DNA from: an uncultured Planctomycetia bacterium
Lineage (GTDB): Bacteria; Omnitrophota; Gorgyraeia; Duberdicusellales; 4484-171
NCBI GenBank assembly: GCA_964536195.1
Contig: CAZHVO010000001.1
Coordinates: forward strand, 1 to 53,072
Direction: 5' to 3'
DNA: 53,072 nucleotides
Under the pieces are notes generated by a model that was given only the letters and a program-made list of their open reading frames with translations, was not told where the DNA came from and did no database searches. Below are positions 6,589-49,894 of this stretch, piece after piece (position 1 is the first letter of the stretch; the number at the start of each line of letters is the position of its first letter). The position numbers and the translations under genes are program-made.

Positions 6589-8124
6589 TTAAAGCATAGG
6601 AAGATACTTTTTTATCTCATGTTGGGTAATCTGAATTCGGTAATCTTCCCACTCCCTTTTCTTATTAAATAAGAATCTATTGAAGATATGGTTTCCTAAG
6701 GTTTCCCGCACAAAATTGCTCTTTTCTGTTTCAACAATAGCTTCAAATAGATTTCCAGGAAGTGAGGTTAGGCCTCTTCTTTCCCTTTCTTCCATAGCCA
6801 TACGATAGATATTAGGTTCAACTACTGGAGGAATCAGGTATTTTTTCTCTATACCTTCTAAGCCTGCCGCTAACATTACCGCAAAAGCTAAATAAGGATT
6901 ACAAGCAGGGTCAGGGCAACGCAATTCTACCCGAGTTGCTTTTTCATTTCCTGGCCGGTACACCGGAACCCTAAGTAGAGCTGTACGGTTCTTCTGTGCC
7001 CAAGAAGCATATACTGGTGCTTCATATCCGGTAATCAGACGTTTATAGGAATTTACCCACTGAGCAGTCAGAGAGGATATCTCTCGAGCATGTTTTAATT
7101 CACCAGCAATGAATCCTTTAGCGATAGAGGATAGATGGTGTTTATCCTTCTTGTCGAAGAAGGCATTTTGATTTCCTTTAAATAGGGATTGATGAACATG
7201 CATTCCTGAGCCATTTACTCCAAACAGAGGTTTAGGCATAAAGGTTGCATATACACCGTTTTGCTGAGCAATTTCTTTAATCACATATTTGCAGGTTATT
7301 ACGTTGTCAGCCATAGTAAGGGCATCATTATACTGGAGATCAATCTCATGCTGTGAGGGTGCTACCTCATGGTGAGTTGCCTCCATGGGTATACCCATCT
7401 CTTCCAGAGTTCTTACAGTTTTGTTTCTTAAAGTATTGGCTAAATCATTGGGTATTAGCTCAAAGTAGGAGCCTTCATCTATTACCTCAGGTTTACGGTC
7501 AGATTTAAAGTAGAAGTATTCTATTTCCGGACCAACATAAAAGGTAAAGCCCATCTTTTTTGCTCGAGCCAATGCCCGTTTTAAAACATAACGAGTATCC
7601 CCGGCATAAGGAGTATGGTCGGGATTAAGTATATCGCAGAGCATCCTGGCGGTAGGATTAGTTTCAGCTGTCCAAGGTAATACCTTGAATGTGCTAGGGT
7701 CAGGTAAAGCAAGAATATCACTCTCCTCAGCCTCAGCAAATCCAGTAATAGAGGAACCATCAAAACCTTTACCATGCTCAAAGGCCCCTTTTAACTCGTT
7801 TTGAGTAATTGAAACACACTTTAAAGTTCCTAAAATATCTACGAACCATAACTGTATAGTTCTTATATTTTCTTTATGTATTGTTTCCAAGACTTTTTTT
7901 ATTTCTTCTTTGCAATTCTTCTTGTTGCTCGAAGAAACGCTTACCTTAGTTTCTTTTTTGACCGGGGGGGTTGTCTTGTCGGGAAGTTGGTTTTTGGGGA
8001 TTATATATCTTTTTCCCATCCTTTCAGCGTAGAGCGCTCCATGCTTTATTCGCTCAATAACTGCCTGACGAGATATCCCTAAAAGCTTAGCTGCTTGAGT
8101 TGGGCTAAAATATTCTTGTTCCAT
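6589..8124 (-). CDS. glnA: Glutamine synthetase type I (alpha-like) with N-terminal excisionase/MerR-like HTH extension
   Basis: GS motifs FDGSSITGF, HHEVAPSQHEID, NGSGMHVHQS, NSYKRL and RVELRCPD. The N-terminus carries the HTH SPTQAAKLLGISRQAVIERIKHG. ATG 8124 follows AAAGGAGGAAAA, whereas the track start 8154 lacks an SD. Confidence 0.85.
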   Translation of the reverse strand: MEQEYFSPTQAAKLLGISRQAVIERIKHGALYAERMGKRYIIPKNQLPDKTTPPVKKETKVSVSSSNKKNCKEEIKKVLETIHKENIRTIQLWFVDILGTLKCVSITQNELKGAFEHGKGFDGSSITGFAEAEESDILALPDPSTFKVLPWTAETNPTARMLCDILNPDHTPYAGDTRYVLKRALARAKKMGFTFYVGPEIEYFYFKSDRKPEVIDEGSYFELIPNDLANTLRNKTVRTLEEMGIPMEATHHEVAPSQHEIDLQYNDALTMADNVITCKYVIKEIAQQNGVYATFMPKPLFGVNGSGMHVHQSLFKGNQNAFFDKKDKHHLSSIAKGFIAGELKHAREISSLTAQWVNSYKRLITGYEAPVYASWAQKNRTALLRVPVYRPGNEKATRVELRCPDPACNPYLAFAVMLAAGLEGIEKKYLIPPVVEPNIYRMAMEERERRGLTSLPGNLFEAIVETEKSNFVRETLGNHIFNRFLFNKKREWEDYRIQITQHEIKKYLPML

Positions 8125-20016: not shown

Positions 20017-20045
20017 TTTACAAGTTAATATGGGCATTGTATAAT
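20017..20045 (+). promoter_or_regulatory. Putative sigma70 promoter of hisG (TTTACA-17-TATAAT)
   Basis: TTTACA at 20017-20022 and TATAAT at 20040-20045. The repeat array begins about 10 nt downstream. Confidence 0.45.
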
Positions 20046-20054
20046 TCTCCATTA

Positions 20055-20181
20055 GATCCTTCGGCTTCGCCTGACTGTTGTCAGGCTTCGCTCAGGATCA
20101 ATTCGATGCTTCGAGAATACTCAGCATCGACCCTGAGCATTGTCGAATGGGTCGACTACAGTCCGCCTTCGGCGAACTAAG
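20055..20181. repeat. Composite of three family-1 GC-rich palindromic repeat modules filling the hisG 5' leader
   Basis: Module 1 is 20055-20099 (GATCCTTCGG...GCTCAGGATC, with an inner GCCTGAC/GTCAGGC hairpin). Module 2 is 20105-20151 (GATGCTTCGA..CTCAGCATCGACCCTGAGC..GTCGAATGGG). Module 3 is 20152-20181 (TCGAC..CGCCTTCGGCG). Confidence 0.75.
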
Positions 20182-20196
20182 TTTCATTGAACAGAT

Positions 20197-21072
20197 ATGG
20201 CAATATTAAAATTAGGAATACCTAAAGGAAGCCTGCAGGAGAAGACATTAGAACTTTTGCGTATGGCCGGTTTCAATGTTTACCTAAGCTCACGGTCATA
20301 TTTCCCTTCTATCGACGATGACGAGATTGAAGTTGTGCTTATTAGGGCCCAGGAGATGTCTCGTTACGTTGAAGAAGGAGTCTTAGACTGTGGTATTACC
20401 GGTGAAGATTGGATTTTAGAGAATGGCTCAAGTGTTCTGAAATTATCCCAGTTACCTTATGCTAAGCAAACGCTTAACCCGGTAAGATGGGTAGTTGCAG
20501 TAAGAGAGGATTCCCGAATAAAGAAACTAAAGGATTTAAAAGGCAAACGGGTAGCCACAGAGCTATTAAAGTATACTAAGAGATTTTTTAAGGCTAAAAA
20601 GATAGATGTAGACATAGAGTTTAGTTGGGGCGCTACTGAAGTTAAGGTAAAAAGCGGTCTAGTTGATGCAATAGTTGAGCTTACCGAGACTGGCACAAGT
20701 CTGCGAGCTAATGGTTTAAAGATAATCGATACGGTATGTACTTCCACTACTCAGTTTATTGCTAATAAGTCTTCTTATGGAAGTAAGTGGAAGAAGAAAA
20801 AGATGCAGCAGGTTTTATTGCTTCTTAAAGGAGCCTTAGAAGCTAGAGCTAAAGTTGGTCTTAAGCTAAATGTTAAAAAGGAGAATCTGGATAAGGTCTT
20901 ATCTATTCTTCCAGCATTGAAGAAGCCAACGATTTCTCATCTAACCTTAAAGAATTGGGTTGCTTGTGAGGTTATTGTCGAAGAGAGCCAAGTACGTAAA
21001 ATTTTACCTTTATTGAAGGAAAATGGGGCCCAAGGGATAATAGAGTACCCCTTAAATAAAGTTATCTATTAG
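20197..21072 (+). CDS. hisG: ATP phosphoribosyltransferase, long form
   Basis: LKLGIPKGSLQEKTLELLRMAGF N-terminus, LVDAIVELTETGTSLRANGL motif and a C-terminal regulatory domain. 291 aa. Confidence 0.9.
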   Translation: MAILKLGIPKGSLQEKTLELLRMAGFNVYLSSRSYFPSIDDDEIEVVLIRAQEMSRYVEEGVLDCGITGEDWILENGSSVLKLSQLPYAKQTLNPVRWVVAVREDSRIKKLKDLKGKRVATELLKYTKRFFKAKKIDVDIEFSWGATEVKVKSGLVDAIVELTETGTSLRANGLKIIDTVCTSTTQFIANKSSYGSKWKKKKMQQVLLLLKGALEARAKVGLKLNVKKENLDKVLSILPALKKPTISHLTLKNWVACEVIVEESQVRKILPLLKENGAQGIIEYPLNKVIY

Positions 21073-25194: not shown

Positions 25195-25266
25195 TGCCCG
25201 GTAGTGTAATCGGTAACACATCAGCTTTTGGAGCTGACTTTCCTGGTTCGAGTCCAGGCCGGGCAA
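25195..25266 (+). tRNA. tRNA-Gln (anticodon UUG)
   Basis: Manual cloverleaf fold. The acceptor stem is TGCCCGG/CCGGGCA and the anticodon stem TCAGC/GCTGA with loop TTTTGGA (anticodon TTG). The T arm is CCTGG-TTCGAGT-CCAGG. 72 nt, no encoded CCA. Confidence 0.85.
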
Positions 25267-25368
25267 TGCTTCGACTCGCCCTTCGGGCTCGCTCAGTATA
25301 GACGAATGAATTCCTTAGGCGAGGAGAAGTATCCTGAGCAACCGAGCGAAGCGAGGGAGTCGAAGGAT
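25267..25368. repeat. Family-1 GC-rich palindromic repeat, long copy (two inverted half-units)
   Basis: CTTCGACTCGCCCTTCGGGCTCGCTCAG and its imperfect inverse CTGAGCAACCGAGCGAAGCGAGGGAGTCGAAG. The repeat abuts the tRNA 3' end and ends 5 nt before the GIY-YIG ATG. Confidence 0.75.
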
Positions 25369-25373
25369 AATAT

Positions 25374-41306: not shown

Positions 41307-41462
41307 AATTCGGGACAGGTCCCATCGAAATTTACCTTACTAGAATTAGCTTTTTTTGAGAAATTCTGTCTTTTTTTTAAAAAAGTAATGAGGTTTTTAT
41401 CCAAATTTCGCTAAAGAACCCTTTGTCAGCTTGCCTTTTTCAAGTGGGACCTGTCCCGAATT
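41307..41462. repeat. Family-2 repeat: perfect 18-bp inverted pair AATTCGGGACAGGTCCCA / TGGGACCTGTCCCGAATT enclosing 120 nt
   Basis: The arms lie at 41307-41324 and 41445-41462. The element sits between convergent genes, and the right arm overlaps the stop codon of the - strand gene. Confidence 0.8.
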
Positions 41463-44475: not shown

Positions 44476-44508
44476 ATTCGGGACATATCCCATTAAAATT
44501 TACCTTAC
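44476..44508. repeat. Family-2 repeat, third copy (ATTCGGGACATATCCCATTAAAATTTACCTTAC)
   Basis: Identical to 41308-41340 at 29 of 33 positions, in the same orientation. It starts 4 nt after the protease stop codon. Confidence 0.75.
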
Positions 44509-44536
44509 CAGCATCATTCTGTAATTATAATACAAA

Positions 44537-45757: not shown

Positions 45758-46732
45758 GTGAACAAGAAGCTAAAAAATATCGTTTCTCGTTTTAAGAATA
45801 AGAGAATCCTTGTGGTCGGAGACTTGATTCTTGACCACCATATCTTTGGAAGCGTTGACCGGGTCTCTCCAGAGGCTCCAGTTCCAGTAGTCTGGGCTAA
45901 TCAAGAGAAATTCGTTCCCGGAGGGGCTGCTAATGTAGGCCTCAACCTTAGTGCTATCGGGGCAAAGGTCAGCCTTTGCGGGGTTATTGGCCGTGATCAT
46001 TTCGGGAAAACTTTATTTTCTCTTATTAGTAAGTGCGGTATTTCTACTAATCTAATTGTTAAAGATAATAAGAGACCTACTACCTTAAAGACTCGAATAA
46101 TTGCTCACCATCAGCAGGTAGTAAGAGTTGATTGGGAATCGTTAGAATTTCTTTCGGCAAATATAAATAAGCTGGTTTTTAATAAAATTAAGAACAACCT
46201 CAATGATTTTGATGCTGTAATTGTCGAAGATTATGGTAAAGGGGTGATAAATCCTCTATTACTTGAGGAATTAGTAAGTTTGTGCCGCAAGAAGAAGAAG
46301 ATAATTACTGTTGACCCCAAAGAGGAACACTTTGATTACTATGAAGACGTAACTGCTCTTACCCCTAATCTAAAAGAAGCTCAGGCTGCAGCCGGAACTA
46401 AGATAAGAAATAAGAATCAGTTGCCTTTTTTAGGCAAGATAATCATGAAGAAGTTAAATCCCAAGGCCCTCTTAATTACCTTAGGAGAAGATGGAATGAT
46501 TTTATTCGCCGGCGATAACCATTATCATATTCCAACAGCAGCTCAGGAGGTTTTTGATGTCAGTGGAGCCGGAGATACCGTGGTATCTGTCTTTACTTTA
46601 GCTTTAACCGCCGGAGCAACTTACAAAGAAGCAGCAATGATTGCCAATTTTGCTGCCGGGGTTGTAGTCGGTAAGTTAGGGGCAGCCACTGCAAACAAAA
46701 AAGAACTCAATAAGGCGATTGATGGAAACTAA
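45758..46732 (+). CDS. hldA: D-glycero-beta-D-manno-heptose-7-phosphate kinase (RfaE domain I-type, PfkB family)
   Basis: GTG start. Contains ILVVGDLILDHHIFGSVDRVSPEAPVPVV and the C-terminal DVSGAGDT motif. There is no adenylyltransferase domain. Confidence 0.8.
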   Translation: MNKKLKNIVSRFKNKRILVVGDLILDHHIFGSVDRVSPEAPVPVVWANQEKFVPGGAANVGLNLSAIGAKVSLCGVIGRDHFGKTLFSLISKCGISTNLIVKDNKRPTTLKTRIIAHHQQVVRVDWESLEFLSANINKLVFNKIKNNLNDFDAVIVEDYGKGVINPLLLEELVSLCRKKKKIITVDPKEEHFDYYEDVTALTPNLKEAQAAAGTKIRNKNQLPFLGKIIMKKLNPKALLITLGEDGMILFAGDNHYHIPTAAQEVFDVSGAGDTVVSVFTLALTAGATYKEAAMIANFAAGVVVGKLGAATANKKELNKAIDGN

Positions 46733-47471
46733 GCTTAATGTAATTGGCGTAATACCGGCACGATATGAATCAACTAGACTCACTTACAAGCTCCTACGCA
46801 AAATTTGTGGTAAGAGCTTACTGCAATGGACTTGGGAGAGTGCATCTGCCACTCATAGTCTCGATAGGCTAATAATTGCTTGCGATCATCTTGAAATAAA
46901 AAAGGAAGCTGAGAAGTTTGGAGCTGAGGTTATTTTAACGTCTCCTGAGCATTGTTCAGGCACAGATAGGATAGCTGAGGTCATAAGAGATATTGATGCT
47001 AAAGTTATTATGAATATCCAGGCTGATGAGCCACTTATCCATCATTCAATAATTGATAGGTTGGCCCAGGAAATGCTTTCCGATGGAGAGTTAGTTATGG
47101 CCACAGTTAAAAAGAGGATTGACCAAGACAACGAGATAAATAACCCTAATGTTGTTAAGGTTGTAACGACCCGGGAAGACTTTGCGATTTATTTTTCCCG
47201 TTTTCCAATTCCCTTTTATCGAAATCAAGATAGTCAGCCTTTACATTACAAACACTTAGGAATTTATGCCTATACCAAGGATTTTCTTTATACTTTCAAG
47301 AATCTTCCTGAATCTTCATTAGAAGGAGCAGAAAAATTAGAGCAATTAAGGGTTCTAGAAGCTGGTTACAAGATAAAAGTTGTTGAAACCCAATTTGATT
47401 CTTGTGGCGTTGATACCGAAGAGGATCTCCGTAAAGCCGAGAGGCTTTTAGCCCAGAGAGGAAATACTTAG
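46719..47471 (+). CDS. kdsB: 3-deoxy-manno-octulosonate cytidylyltransferase
   Basis: VIGVIPARYESTRL, GTDRIAEV, NIQADEPLI and EQLRVLEAGY motifs. Confidence 0.92.
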   Translation: MMETKLNVIGVIPARYESTRLTYKLLRKICGKSLLQWTWESASATHSLDRLIIACDHLEIKKEAEKFGAEVILTSPEHCSGTDRIAEVIRDIDAKVIMNIQADEPLIHHSIIDRLAQEMLSDGELVMATVKKRIDQDNEINNPNVVKVVTTREDFAIYFSRFPIPFYRNQDSQPLHYKHLGIYAYTKDFLYTFKNLPESSLEGAEKLEQLRVLEAGYKIKVVETQFDSCGVDTEEDLRKAERLLAQRGNT

Positions 47472-47488
47472 AGGAGTGAGGGTTTAAT

Positions 47489-48358
47489 ATGCTTAAATTA
47501 GGAAAGGAATTGATGCTTCGACGGCGCTCAGCATCAACCCTGAGCGAACTCGGGCTTAAAAGCCGAGGAAAGTCGAATGGGTTGATTTTTATCGCTGGTC
47601 CCTGTGTGATTGAGAATAAGAGTCAAACTATGGATATCGCTTCTTATTTGAAGGATTTATCTTCAACTCTTCCGATACAGTTTATCTTTAAGGCCAGTTT
47701 TGATAAGGCTAATCGTACCTCAGTGAAATCTCCTCGAGGGGTAGGGTTAGCTAAGGGAATTAAGATATTAGGAGAAGTTAAGTCCAAGCTAAGAATTCCG
47801 ATTTTAAGCGATGTACATTGTGTTAGCCAGATAAAAGATGTTAAGGATGTTCTTGATATAATTCAAATACCGGCTTTTCTCTGTCGTCAAACCGATTTAA
47901 TTTTAGAGGCGGCAAAAACCAAGAAGATAATAAATATTAAGAAAGGCCAATTCCTTTCTCCTACCGATATTAAGTATGTAGTCGAAAAGGTTGAGGCAAC
48001 AGGGAATAAAAAGATTCTTATTACTGAGAGAGGGAGTTGTTTTGGTTACAATAGTCTAGTTGTTGACTTCCGTTCTTTTTTAATTATGAAGAAATACGGG
48101 TACCCGGTAATTTATGATGTTACTCACTCTTTGCAAAGTCCTTCAGCAAAGGGAGGAGTTTCAGGTGGAGACAGAGAATTTGCTTCTAGTTTAGCTAAGG
48201 CAGCGGTAGCTTGTGGTGTAGATGGCTTATTTATGGAAGTGCATCCCAAGCCTTCTCAGGCTTTATCAGATGCTTACACTTCTTTACCTTTAACTAAGCT
48301 CAAAGGTTTAGTCAAGAGTATCCTGAAGATAAGAGAGGTAGTAGATGAGAAAATTTAA
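47489..48358 (+). CDS. kdsA: 3-deoxy-8-phosphooctulonate (KDO-8-P) synthase, carrying a 24-codon repeat insertion after codon 7
   Basis: IAGPCVIE, FKASFDKANRTS, IIQIPAFLCRQTDL, DVTHSLQ and the GLFMEVHP motif. ATG 47489 lies behind GAGGAGTGAGGG. An alternative start is TTG 47582. Confidence 0.9.
   Translation: MLKLGKELMLRRRSASTLSELGLKSRGKSNGLIFIAGPCVIENKSQTMDIASYLKDLSSTLPIQFIFKASFDKANRTSVKSPRGVGLAKGIKILGEVKSKLRIPILSDVHCVSQIKDVKDVLDIIQIPAFLCRQTDLILEAAKTKKIINIKKGQFLSPTDIKYVVEKVEATGNKKILITERGSCFGYNSLVVDFRSFLIMKKYGYPVIYDVTHSLQSPSAKGGVSGGDREFASSLAKAAVACGVDGLFMEVHPKPSQALSDAYTSLPLTKLKGLVKSILKIREVVDEKI
47510..47581. repeat. Family-1 GC-rich palindromic repeat inserted in frame in kdsA (72 nt), flanked by TTGAT direct repeats
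   Basis: It shares GATGCTTCGA, CTCAGCATC[A/G]ACCCTGAGC and GTCGAATGGG with 20105-20151. TTGAT occurs at 47510-47514 and 47582-47586. Confidence 0.8.
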
Positions 48359-49325
48359 GAAAGAAAAGATAATAAGTTGGGCAAAAGAAGTGCTTAAAAC
48401 CGAGAAGAAAGGCATTGATGACTTGGGCCGTAATTTAAATAAGAGTTTTTTAAAGGTAATTGATACGATTTCCTGTTGCAAGGGTAGAGTTGTAGTTACT
48501 GGTATGGGGAAAGCCGGAATCATCGGCCAGAAGTTCTCAGCCACTCTTTCTTCTACTGGTTCTTCATCATTTTGGCTCCATGCTGCTGAGGCAGTCCATG
48601 GAGATTTAGGTAGTGTACGCGAAGATGATGTAGTGGTAGTTCTCTCTTATAGCGGAGAGACTGATGAGGTAAAGAATTTAATCCCTTTCATAAAGAAGAT
48701 TGGAGCAAAAATTATTGCTATTACTGGTAATATTAAATCTAGCCTTGCTCGTTATGCCGACAGTGTAGTTAACGTTAAGGTAGACAAGGAAGCCTGTGCA
48801 TTAGGCCTAGCCCCAACTACTTCTACTACGGCAATGTTAGTAATATGTGATGCGATATCTGTAGTTTTACAAAGAATAAAGGGTTTTAAGGAAAAGGATT
48901 TTGCTTTTTTCCATCCCCGGGGTTCTTTGGGCAGGAGATTGCTTCTTAAAGTTAAGGATATTATGCGTAAGGGGAAATTTAATCCTATTGTTAACGAGGA
49001 TACTTTAGTTAAAGAGGTTATTTTAGAAATAACAACTGCTCATGCTGGAGCAGCAACGGTTGTTAACAAGAGTAGAAAATTGATCGGGATATTTACCGAT
49101 GGAGACCTGCGCCGAAATTTAGAAAAACATCCCTATCTTCTAAAGGAAAAGGTCAAGATGGTTATGACTAAGAATCCAATAGTAGTTTGCGATGATGATT
49201 TGGCTTCGGAGGCTTTAAAGATTTTAGAGAAAAAGAAGATTGATGAAGTTCCAGTAGTAGATAAAGATTATTACCCTGCCGGGATGCTTGATATTCAGGA
49301 TTTAATTGCTGCCGGAATAATATAA
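48345..49325 (+). CDS. kdsD: Arabinose-5-phosphate isomerase (SIS + tandem CBS domains)
   Basis: The SIS motif is GRVVVTGMGKAGIIGQK, with two C-terminal CBS repeats. It sits in the kdsA-kdsD-kdsC context. Confidence 0.9.
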   Translation: MRKFKKEKIISWAKEVLKTEKKGIDDLGRNLNKSFLKVIDTISCCKGRVVVTGMGKAGIIGQKFSATLSSTGSSSFWLHAAEAVHGDLGSVREDDVVVVLSYSGETDEVKNLIPFIKKIGAKIIAITGNIKSSLARYADSVVNVKVDKEACALGLAPTTSTTAMLVICDAISVVLQRIKGFKEKDFAFFHPRGSLGRRLLLKVKDIMRKGKFNPIVNEDTLVKEVILEITTAHAGAATVVNKSRKLIGIFTDGDLRRNLEKHPYLLKEKVKMVMTKNPIVVCDDDLASEALKILEKKKIDEVPVVDKDYYPAGMLDIQDLIAAGII

Positions 49326-49360: not shown

Positions 49361-49894
49361 ATGAATAAAAAAATTAAAGACCTATTCAAAAAAGTAAAAC
49401 TGCTTATTCTAGATGTTGATGGAGTCTTAACTCGAGGGGAGATTATTTACGACAGCCAGGGTAGGGATCTTAAGATTTTTAACGTTAAGGATGGATTAGG
49501 AGTAGTTCTTCTTAGCAAGTTAGGAATTAAGACTATTTTTCTTTCAGCTAATAATTCCCCAGTGCTTAAAAGAAGAGCTCAAGATATGCGGGTGGCTGAG
49601 GTAATCGGCGGAATTCTACCCAAAGAAAGTGTTCTGGGAAAAATTAAGAAGAAATATAAGGTTAAAGAAGGCGAAATTTGTTTTGTTGGTGATGATTGGA
49701 TAGATTTAGGTTTAATCGAGAAGGTCGGGATACCGGTAGCAGTGCCTGATGCGCCTCTAGCAGTTAAGAGAGCAGCTAAATACATTACTAAAAGAAAAGG
49801 CGGAGAAGGAGCAGTAAGAGAGGTAGCAGATCTAATTTTTAAAGCCCAAAATTTAGAGAAAAAGATCTATAAAATCATTAAGAATCCTCGCTAA
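49361..49894 (+). CDS. kdsC: 3-deoxy-D-manno-octulosonate 8-phosphate phosphatase (HAD family)
   Basis: LLILDVDGVLT HAD motif I and the GDDWIDL motif. 177 aa. Confidence 0.88.
   Translation: MNKKIKDLFKKVKLLILDVDGVLTRGEIIYDSQGRDLKIFNVKDGLGVVLLSKLGIKTIFLSANNSPVLKRRAQDMRVAEVIGGILPKESVLGKIKKKYKVKEGEICFVGDDWIDLGLIEKVGIPVAVPDAPLAVKRAAKYITKRKGGEGAVREVADLIFKAQNLEKKIYKIIKNPR

Follow-up and report, generated by a model that had tools for sequence, protein, structure and literature searches.

The kdsA gene (3-deoxy-8-phosphooctulonate synthase) of an uncultured Omnitrophota bacterium holds, a few codons from its start, a 72-nt palindromic segment that leaves the reading frame intact; the question is what this segment is, how it came to be there, and how the enzyme accommodates it. 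The gene lies in the stretch of DNA analysed here, hereafter the window, which comprises positions 1 to 53,072 (53,072 nt) of contig CAZHVO010000001.1 (assembly GCA_964536195.1). We consider it likely that the 72 nt are a tiny non-autonomous palindromic mobile element, made up of a 48-nt-period core and a 24-nt module, that integrated at the TTGA of kdsA codon 8, with a targeting step that would be guided by the loop of the element's own hairpin. The start of the gene is laid out as follows.

47471-47482, + strand: ribosome-binding site of kdsA, GAGGAGTGAGGG
47471-47491, + strand: region with this site, the 6-nt spacer TTTAAT and the ATG start at 47489
47489-48358, + strand: kdsA, 289 aa with the 24-aa insert; TIM-barrel core from about residue 32

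The first-pass annotation of this DNA had the ribosome-binding site, spacer and ATG exactly right, and likewise the 72-nt block with TTGAT at its two edges (47510-47514 and again 47582-47586). The block occupies codons 8-31 (47510-47581), is stop-free and in frame after codon 7, and reads LMLRRRSASTLSELGLKSRGKSNG. Excising it yields the ordinary short N-terminus that had been predicted: kdsA minus the 72 nt reads MLKLGKELIFIAGPCVIE, and the closest insert-free orthologue, P0002 (91% identity to the window KdsA by alignment, 93% by BLASTP), reads MFKLGKELIFIAGPCVIE and has a single TTGAT in its DNA. The short N-terminus that the annotation had given for Aquifex KdsA is borne out by 1FWN and other solved 267-aa chains, in which residue 5 aligns with residue 33 of the window protein. 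In a comparison that drew on thousands of homologues, the closest orthologues (85-91% amino acid identity by alignment) are 265 aa long and are without exactly residues 8-31, as anticipated for 72 nt (24 aa) that preserve the frame. The empty site is also seen in DNA, as GAA-TTGAT-TTTTATC with one TTGAT in contig L009, and as GAA-TTGAC-TTTTATT with one TTGAC in L130, L132 and L133.

The insertion is not unique to the window genome, so that alignment of orthologues overturned the idea that residues 8-31 might be peculiar to it. Three Omnitrophota lineages have it in common at the same codon: the other two, P0001 (JGI and ENA contigs L001 and L002) and P0006 (22 Logan contigs, L003-L008), are likewise 289 aa long with a 24-aa insert. 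By neighbour joining on the KdsA core, the three filled alleles belong to a single clade in which empty alleles are interleaved, the window being sister to the P0002-P0005 group, P0001 sister to P0008, and P0006 basal. This interleaving implies either one gain followed by three to four precise losses or three gains at one site. The L003 insert is 53% identical to that of the window, against 48% at four-fold sites, i.e., it has decayed at a neutral level while still being open and in frame, and it still resembles the window's extra hairpin module; neutral-level divergence together with the retained resemblance favours a shared origin. The window and L001 inserts are 82% identical, compared with 54% at four-fold sites, suggesting that consensus bases were maintained or refreshed in these two lineages. 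In the L001 insert the left flank (TTAAT), the loop (ATTAA) and the right flank (TTAAC) are all TTAA-type, and the nearest empty relatives of L001 carry TTGAC, not TTAA. The kdsA insertion would be old, and sister lineages would have lost it by precise deletion between the TTGA repeats. Palindromes are unstable, and where a hairpin holds 4-5-nt repeats together, slippage from one to the other during replication would bring back the wild-type codons, so that precise loss in principle needs no enzyme.

The insert has a compound hairpin architecture, as follows.

47510-47513, + strand: left flanking tetranucleotide, TTGA
47514-47581, + strand: element body, T-GC through GGG; with one TTGA it makes up the 72-nt insertion
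47517-47522, + strand: outer stem A, 5' arm TTCGAC; pairs with 47572-47577
47526-47531, + strand: inner stem B, 5' arm GCTCAG; pairs with 47540-47545
47531-47540, + strand: guide-like loop 10-mer, GCATCAACCC
47540-47545, + strand: inner stem B, 3' arm CTGAGC
47546-47571, + strand: extra hairpin module, GAA-CTCGGGC-TTAAAA-GCCGAG-GAAA
47572-47577, + strand: outer stem A, 3' arm GTCGAA
47582-47585, + strand: right flanking tetranucleotide, TTGA; the next base is host

Read in succession, the right end GGG, TTGA and the left end TGC have the loop 10-mer GCATCAACCC as their reverse complement, and this 10-mer is able to pair with either 47510-47516 (TTGATGC) or 47579-47585 (GGGTTGA). The same holds for the family to which the insert belongs, with TYRA in place of TTGA. 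Its minimal unit is TYRA-T-GC-TTCGAC-nnnG-CTCAG-CATCAACC-CTGAG-Cnn-GTCGAA-GGG-TYRA, and consists of two nested stems (TTCGAC/GTCGAA and GCTCAG/CTGAGC) and an 8-nt loop, with a start-to-start period of 48 nt in most copies (44 nt plus the 4-nt TYRA). The module at 47546-47571 converts this core to the 72-nt form. Larger forms generally (72, 93, 102 and 108 nt) have hairpin modules at one or both inter-stem junctions, and these vary in sequence between copies while keeping their pairing and architecture. The element ends are TGC... and ...GGG; inverted repeats are only subterminal (TTCGAC/GTCGAA).

Further copies in the window, in genomes and in metagenomes confirm that the 72 nt represent one member of a dispersed family of palindromic repeats, as first proposed from blocks shared with a site at 20105. 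The shared blocks are real: the 34-nt pattern GATGCTTCGAN5CTCAGCATCRACCCTGAGC has exactly two matches in the window (20105 and 47512) versus none expected (100 shuffles). With a covariance model derived from the metagenome copies, the window yields three copies, of which two are additional to that in kdsA.

20103-20156, + strand: second copy, TCGA-type, 49-nt period, intergenic, upstream of an open reading frame (ORF) from 20197
25263-25372, + strand: third, degenerate copy with an expanded 37-nt loop and hairpin modules (covariance model)

The degenerate copy (GCAATGCTTCGAC ... GTCGAAGGATAAT) begins within the last bases of a tRNA gene (25195-25266), and its expanded loop may be a nested insertion. 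A scan of one genome per GTDB species for the inner hairpin CTCAGCATYRACCCTGAGC gave at least 118 loci, comprising about 100 genuine copies with the same flanking arms and about 20 chance matches in GC-rich genes, as expected for a pattern of this size; a metagenome scan added 116 copies (69 distinct sequences). The family is not lineage-specific, being present in at least 8 phyla. Hosts include many Omnitrophota, among them the complete genome of Velamenicoccus archaeovorus; Patescibacteria (Wildermuth-, Roizman-, Woese- and Curtissbacteria, Saccharibacteria, Paceibacterales); Desulfobacteraceae and other Thermodesulfobacteriota (Desulfobacterota), with dozens of copies in one metagenome-assembled genome (MAG); Planctomycetia (Planctomycetota), Stahlbacteria, Aminicenantia (Aminicenantes), a Nitrospira (Nitrospirota) and uncultured Gammaproteobacteria; and, in culture, two strains of the cyanobacterium Crocosphaera. 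No family match was found in PLSDB plasmids, GenBank phages or IMG/VR, and no description of the family in the searchable literature (queried with sequence fragments and keywords). Rfam 15 gave no covariance-model match at gathering score for the window and 15 loci, and nothing relevant at E up to 10 around the kdsA copy or the 20103-20156 copy. The family is apparently undescribed so far.

Local context differs among copies. In the Desulfobacteraceae MAG JASFEQ01 (L016-L123, many contigs), dozens of TCGA-type copies lie within a composite repeat of about 150 nt (...GAGGGTAACGCAGCCCTTCGATGC ... GGCAGATGGGCGTTTTCCGACAGCC) that includes other hairpins of the TTCGAC...CTCAGG...GTCGAA type and was evidently amplified as a unit. 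A variant at L041 6640-6701 has the same outer arms and a TTAA end with a wholly different inner hairpin.

What ties the flanking repeat to the element is the loop. Among the copies listed in the genome scan, flanks are TTGA, TCGA, TTAA or TCAA, and the loop always holds the reverse complement. Because the genome scan fixed most of the loop, the metagenome scan left all eight loop bases free (pattern GCTTCGAC-N3-GCTCAG-N8-CTGAGC-N3-GTCGAA), and covariation was computed on the 69 distinct sequences; a fifth flank class, CTGA (CTGAT/ATCAG), emerged from these. For the 5' flank plus GC against the loop (columns 1-6 versus 23-28), 97% of cells are paired and four of the six pairs are changed on both sides; for the loop against GGG plus the 3' flank (columns 25-30 versus 47-52), the figures are 96% and five of six. 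The covariation score was reached in none of 500 shuffles, and pairing collapses if the partner is slid by 1-3 columns. Covariation extends to the left fifth base (TTGAC/GTCAA, TCAAG/CTTGA) and to the element-internal GGG (GGA-TTGA/TCAA-TCC, GTG-TCGA/TCGA-CAC). The right fifth base is free, which makes the true repeat 4 nt (TYRA) and the left fifth base T part of the element. Thus the duplication of TTGAT proposed by the first-pass annotation is genuine as a flanking repeat, and its length is 4 bp rather than 5. Many TCGA-type copies come from few genomes, so cell counts overstate the number of independent events; counts at the level of pairs are nevertheless robust, and the flank classes occur in different phyla.

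The second copy in L107 (- strand, ~7248-7300; loop CATCAATC, right end TGGATTGAT) shows a compensatory C-G to T-A change outside the flanking repeat. A loop-complementary sequence would form wherever two ends join or copies stand in tandem. In L184 (483-570), two CTGA-type copies stand in perfect tandem, 48 nt apart and with the middle CTGA common to both, within an open frame of 192 codons, showing that a copy already in place re-creates a usable target at its ends.

These data bear on the best-surviving alternative, that the element is an ordinary MITE (miniature inverted-repeat transposable element), cut and pasted by a DDE transposase acting in trans, with a 4-5 bp duplication at a preferred TYRA and no role for the loop. 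Small size, internal inverted repeats, flanking direct repeats and presence/absence polymorphism would all fit such an element, as would the lack of any orientation bias. On the other hand, loop and flank covary at positions within the repeat and beyond it, GGG/GGA and the left fifth base among them, and passive duplication would not produce this; an arbitrary target-site duplication, as first suggested, is hard to square with a flank that covaries with the element's own loop across subfamilies. In addition, the extreme termini are not mutual inverted repeats (TGC versus CCC), and the fetched loci, 1.7 Mb in all, showed no longer element sharing these ends, nor any left or right end without a partner within 160 nt that pointed to one. 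We therefore regard the MITE explanation as unlikely, and a loop-guided element as the better account.

The family is also found in other genes. Among the matches listed, 18 of 91 genome copies lie within long ORFs of recognisable genes, as do copies in 26 of 109 distinct metagenome contexts, so that about a quarter of the family is intragenic, in both orientations relative to the gene. The host genes are kdsA, proA, ispE-like, coaX-like, spoIID and gltB genes and those for PFOR, CCA-adding enzyme and Rnf-type Fe-S proteins; kdsA and proA were identified by homology search, and the remaining names are readings of translated ORFs. A catalogue of copies by flank, length and context, which the annotation had proposed, showed other copies flanked by repeats and every genic copy with a measured period to be a multiple of three (48, 72, 93, 102), the metagenome pattern giving no length measurement because it fixed the element at 48. 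Copies of 47, 49, 68, 74 or 100 nt are all in contexts read as non-coding. In each consensus four of the six reading frames are stop-free, and the closed forward frame is that in which the target TTGA itself would hold a TGA stop. Divisibility by three and four open frames would together render the element nearly invisible to reading frames.

The proA gene of L044 provides a second case with filled and empty alleles. It carries 48 extra nt (16 aa) with ATCAA on both sides, whereas L247, whose protein is 94% identical, has no insert and a single ATAAA at the site; the insert is missing from orthologues that are 93-94% identical. Relatedly, the ProA orthologues P0124 and P0125 are without the 16-aa insert, and their segment at residues ~58-78 is 11 aa longer and rewritten (AARDSAKAFAESSKNKRQPAFLL versus LANEIGLSDAMI in relatives); this segment may be another intragenic insertion.

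Is the kdsA insert translated? The annotation had offered, as an alternative, initiation at TTG 47582 behind a structured leader. The ribosome-binding site and ATG upstream are conserved in alleles with and without the insert, and the codon equivalent to TTG 47582 is TTA in L001 and CTG in L003, so that a downstream restart is no general solution. The sole Shine-Dalgarno-like sequence before this TTG, GAGGA at 47565-47569, is 12 nt away and within the stem of the extra hairpin. On this sequence evidence a start at TTG 47582 is unlikely, and the insert would be translated as a 24-aa N-terminal extension ahead of the first β-strand of the TIM barrel. By calculation, about one in three random stretches of 24 codons is free of stops, so that the openness of the L003 insert is weak evidence for translation. 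The TIGR01362 model aligns to the window KdsA from residue 32. The structural model that had been suggested as a check (AlphaFold2, predicted template modelling score 0.82) places the segment ahead of β-strand 1 (residues 32-37) and gives residues 1-30 a predicted local distance difference test (pLDDT) score of 39-49, pointing to an extension that is probably disordered. In TIM barrels the segment before β-strand 1 lies on the face opposite the active site, which makes a floppy N-terminal extension plausible and tolerable. KdsA would thus stay functional by virtue of the insert preceding the first strand.

Two further explanations, both very improbable in our estimation, concern what the insert does as RNA or protein. 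The first is that it is a functional structured RNA, i.e., a leader with restart at TTG 47582 or a self-cleaving or self-splicing RNA. The insert region indeed folds stably as RNA (-31.6 kcal/mol, z -3.2), and hairpin modules that differ in sequence retain their pairing, but there is no Rfam family even at E up to 10, and the TTG is TTA or CTG in other filled alleles. Moreover, genic copies are always stop-free multiples of three, which would be needless if the RNA were removed. In stem A, the + strand shows 5 G-T wobbles versus 4 A-C mismatches, favouring neither strand; this lack of wobble asymmetry, with copies in both orientations relative to genes, argues for structure at the DNA rather than the RNA level. 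Two specific candidates were rejected. A small ribozyme such as the hammerhead is suggested by a three-way junction with CUGAG...GAAAGUC, but the core departs from CUGANGA...GAA and Rfam gave no match; an integron attC site fails, on inspection, on its R'/R'' cores (GTTRRRY / RYYYAAC), TCGA-type copies being without GTT.

The second, no more probable, is that the insert is a domesticated peptide or linker, beneficial to the host and kept by selection on the KdsA protein. The 82% identity of the window and L001 inserts against 54% at four-fold sites would agree with this, as would the greater conservation of codon positions 1 and 2 than of 3. However, conservation falls on the bases of the cross-phylum DNA consensus, this DNA gives other peptides in other frames and orientations in unrelated proteins, most close orthologues are without the insert, the L003 copy has drifted at a neutral rate, and the pLDDT of the segment is below 50.

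An assembly or chimera artefact, of the kind by which repeats can mislead metagenome assemblers, is effectively ruled out by the same in-frame insertion at the same codon in independent JGI, ENA and 22 Logan contigs with flanks collinear with the kds operon.

Returning to a mobile element with a loop guide, it appears that the element's own DNA directs the choice of target. Insertion would add the element plus one TYRA at a target tetranucleotide; the loop would serve as a guide, made of DNA, by which the target tetranucleotide is selected or aligned or the ends are brought together; and such integration would need an enzyme acting in trans. More tentatively, and at less than even odds, the family could represent a novel type of micro-transposon that, at 44 nt plus the 4-nt repeat, would rank with the smallest mobile DNA units described and in which a Watson-Crick loop guide picks the site and aligns the ends, the enzyme is widespread or host-encoded, and a length divisible by three with four of six frames open allows essential genes to be colonised in compact genomes across many phyla.

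Several results weigh against a loop-guided element. The mobilising enzyme was not found: a tblastn search with Y1/RAYT-like queries (RAYT, REP-associated tyrosine transposase; REP, repetitive extragenic palindrome), covering 4-16 kb around each copy, gave only two Y1_Tnp genes in the 1.7 Mb of fetched loci, both unlinked to copies (L201 and L092, Pfam PF01797; neither is flanked by family copies). Element orientation relative to local GC skew, a noisy proxy, was unbiased (72 on the G-rich strand, 63 on the C-rich, p = 0.49). No circle junction or tandem junction was seen, save the two tandem copies in L184. The hairpin is single and compound, with the guide in its apical loop, whereas IS200/IS605 elements have theirs 5' of the foot of each of two subterminal hairpins. 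To account for the distribution in kdsA, three to four independent precise losses or three independent same-site gains are needed, and the TTAA change in L001 needs a compensatory change, gene conversion or re-insertion, beyond a single ancient insertion. Circular permutation was considered and rejected, in that the A'-loop-A form predicted if a circle integrated via either complementary site is absent. The Y1_Tnp gene of L092 (259-1031, 230 aa, IS200-like or RAYT-like) lies between 21-bp inverted repeats (AAAAGGGGACGGTTCTATTTT / AAAATAGAACCGTCCCCTTTT) and belongs to a different small mobile unit, unlinked to the family studied here.

Among known systems, Rickettsia palindromic elements (RPEs) are small repeats of palindromic sequence; they enter unrelated housekeeping genes without shifting the frame, and the protein survives translation of the added segment (PMC10969869). 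The kdsA case is a real instance of this kind of in-frame insertion by a new family, which upholds the analogy drawn by the first-pass annotation: insertion into unrelated genes adds a translated segment, with the same outcome for KdsA. Intragenic REPs, short hairpin repeats that sometimes encode 20-30 aa (PMC3733652), are a further close analogy. RPEs differ in being ~100-150 bp long and confined to Rickettsia and relatives, compared with a 48-nt core and at least 8 phyla here; the family hosts found are all outside Rickettsiales. Loop-to-flank complementarity for RPEs was not found in PMC10969869 or PMC3733652.

In REP/RAYT systems, a conserved tetranucleotide (GTAG) is proposed to guide the choice of cleavage site by DNA-DNA pairing (PMC8266576). 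The family consensus TTGATGCTTCGACnnnGCTCAGCATCAACCCTGAGCnnnGTCGAAGGGTTGA has neither a GTAG nor a CGTC tag on either strand, and resembles CGTC REPs in that no dedicated transposase has been identified there either. Unlike REPs and REPINs, it has two nested stems with an internal loop instead of one REP stem; its guide-like sequence is apical, forming 7 Watson-Crick base pairs with each junction; and no RAYT linkage was seen for family copies in the fetched loci.

Among well-studied DNA transposons, IS200/IS605 elements are to our knowledge the only ones to use their own DNA in reading the target. In these, a tetranucleotide guide pairs with the cleavage site and target, the element is excised precisely, and an altered guide redirects it to another target (PMC5934647); the target is TTGAT for ISDra2 and TTAC for IS608 (PMC5934647, PMC8612924). 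The present family is like IS200/IS605 and palindrome-associated transposable elements (PATEs) in inserting beside a specific tetra- or pentanucleotide complementary to element DNA, the use of pairing being putative here, and its TTGA, TCGA, TTAA, TCAA and CTGA subfamilies match what retargeting by guide change produces. In IS200/IS605 elements there are two imperfect palindromes, both subterminal, the 4-nt guides lie at the 5' foot and pair in part non-canonically, the left and right cleavage sites differ, and the replication-strand bias is strong (IS608, ISDra2). In the family, a single compound hairpin carries one loop guide that serves both junctions, the left and right tetranucleotides are the same, and neither a skew bias nor a linked tnpA was detected in the fetched loci. 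The resemblance is one of logic, not membership.

MITEs such as Correia, ERIC and Nezha include some that fuse in frame with genes (PMC10969869). Like these, the family is non-autonomous and shorter than 300 bp, with inverted repeats, flanking direct repeats and one copy of the repeat at the empty site; unlike them, it is smaller, its termini are not inverted repeats, its flanking repeat is specified by internal sequence, and it has no known parent insertion sequence.

In-frame palindromic insertions have so far been discussed mostly for Rickettsia and a few REP families. The family presents the same phenomenon at a smaller scale (16-aa units), in streamlined uncultivated phyla (Omnitrophota, Patescibacteria) and in Desulfobacterota and Cyanobacteria. 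Gene calls and protein alignments in these lineages will contain element peptides such as LMLRxRSASTLS, DASTSLSINPERSRRVD and INPSTTLRVDAERSRS, which are not ancestral. Complementarity of the loop to right end, TYRA and left end implies DNA-guided choice of target or joining of ends; if this is true and the enzyme is found, the family would amount to a minimal reprogrammable integration system, with a logic comparable to that of IS608.

The identity of the gene is solid, given its score with the KdsA equivalog model NF003543 (384 bits versus a cut-off of 242, residues 26-286) and its neighbours kdsB, kdsD and kdsC. KdsA chains in the PDB align with the window KdsA at E ~1e-84, from residue 27-33 on. 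The neighbouring genes, each assigned with a curated hidden Markov model, are these.

45758-46732: heptose-7-phosphate kinase gene
46719-47471: kdsB
48345-49325: kdsD
49361-49894: kdsC

The order pfkB-type heptose kinase, kdsB, kdsA, kdsD, kdsC is kept in L001 and L003-L009, where it continues with lptC/lptA-like genes, lptB, trigger factor and clpP; in L003, lpxC-fabZ, lpxA and lpxI lie upstream of the kdsA neighbourhood. The window as a whole is AT-rich (about 38-40% G+C), and the closest protein homologues are, in every case, named Omnitrophica or Omnitrophota.

Two other repeat-bearing regions of the window may be mentioned. Downstream of a promoter-like TTTACA...TATAAT and ahead of the ORF at 20197, positions 20040-20185 form a GC-rich, highly structured intergenic block of ~130 nt, with an RNA fold of -58.5 kcal/mol (z -5.4); this block holds the second family copy, an apparent extra 5' half-copy (GATCCTTCGGC...GCTCAGGATC) and two unrelated hairpins, CCTGACTGTTGTCAGG and CCGCCTTCGGCG. 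A 39-nt direct repeat, ATTCGGGACAGGTCCCATCGAAATTTACCTTACTAGAAT, unrelated to the family, occurs at 41308-41346 and 44476-44514 (85% identical, 3.2 kb apart).

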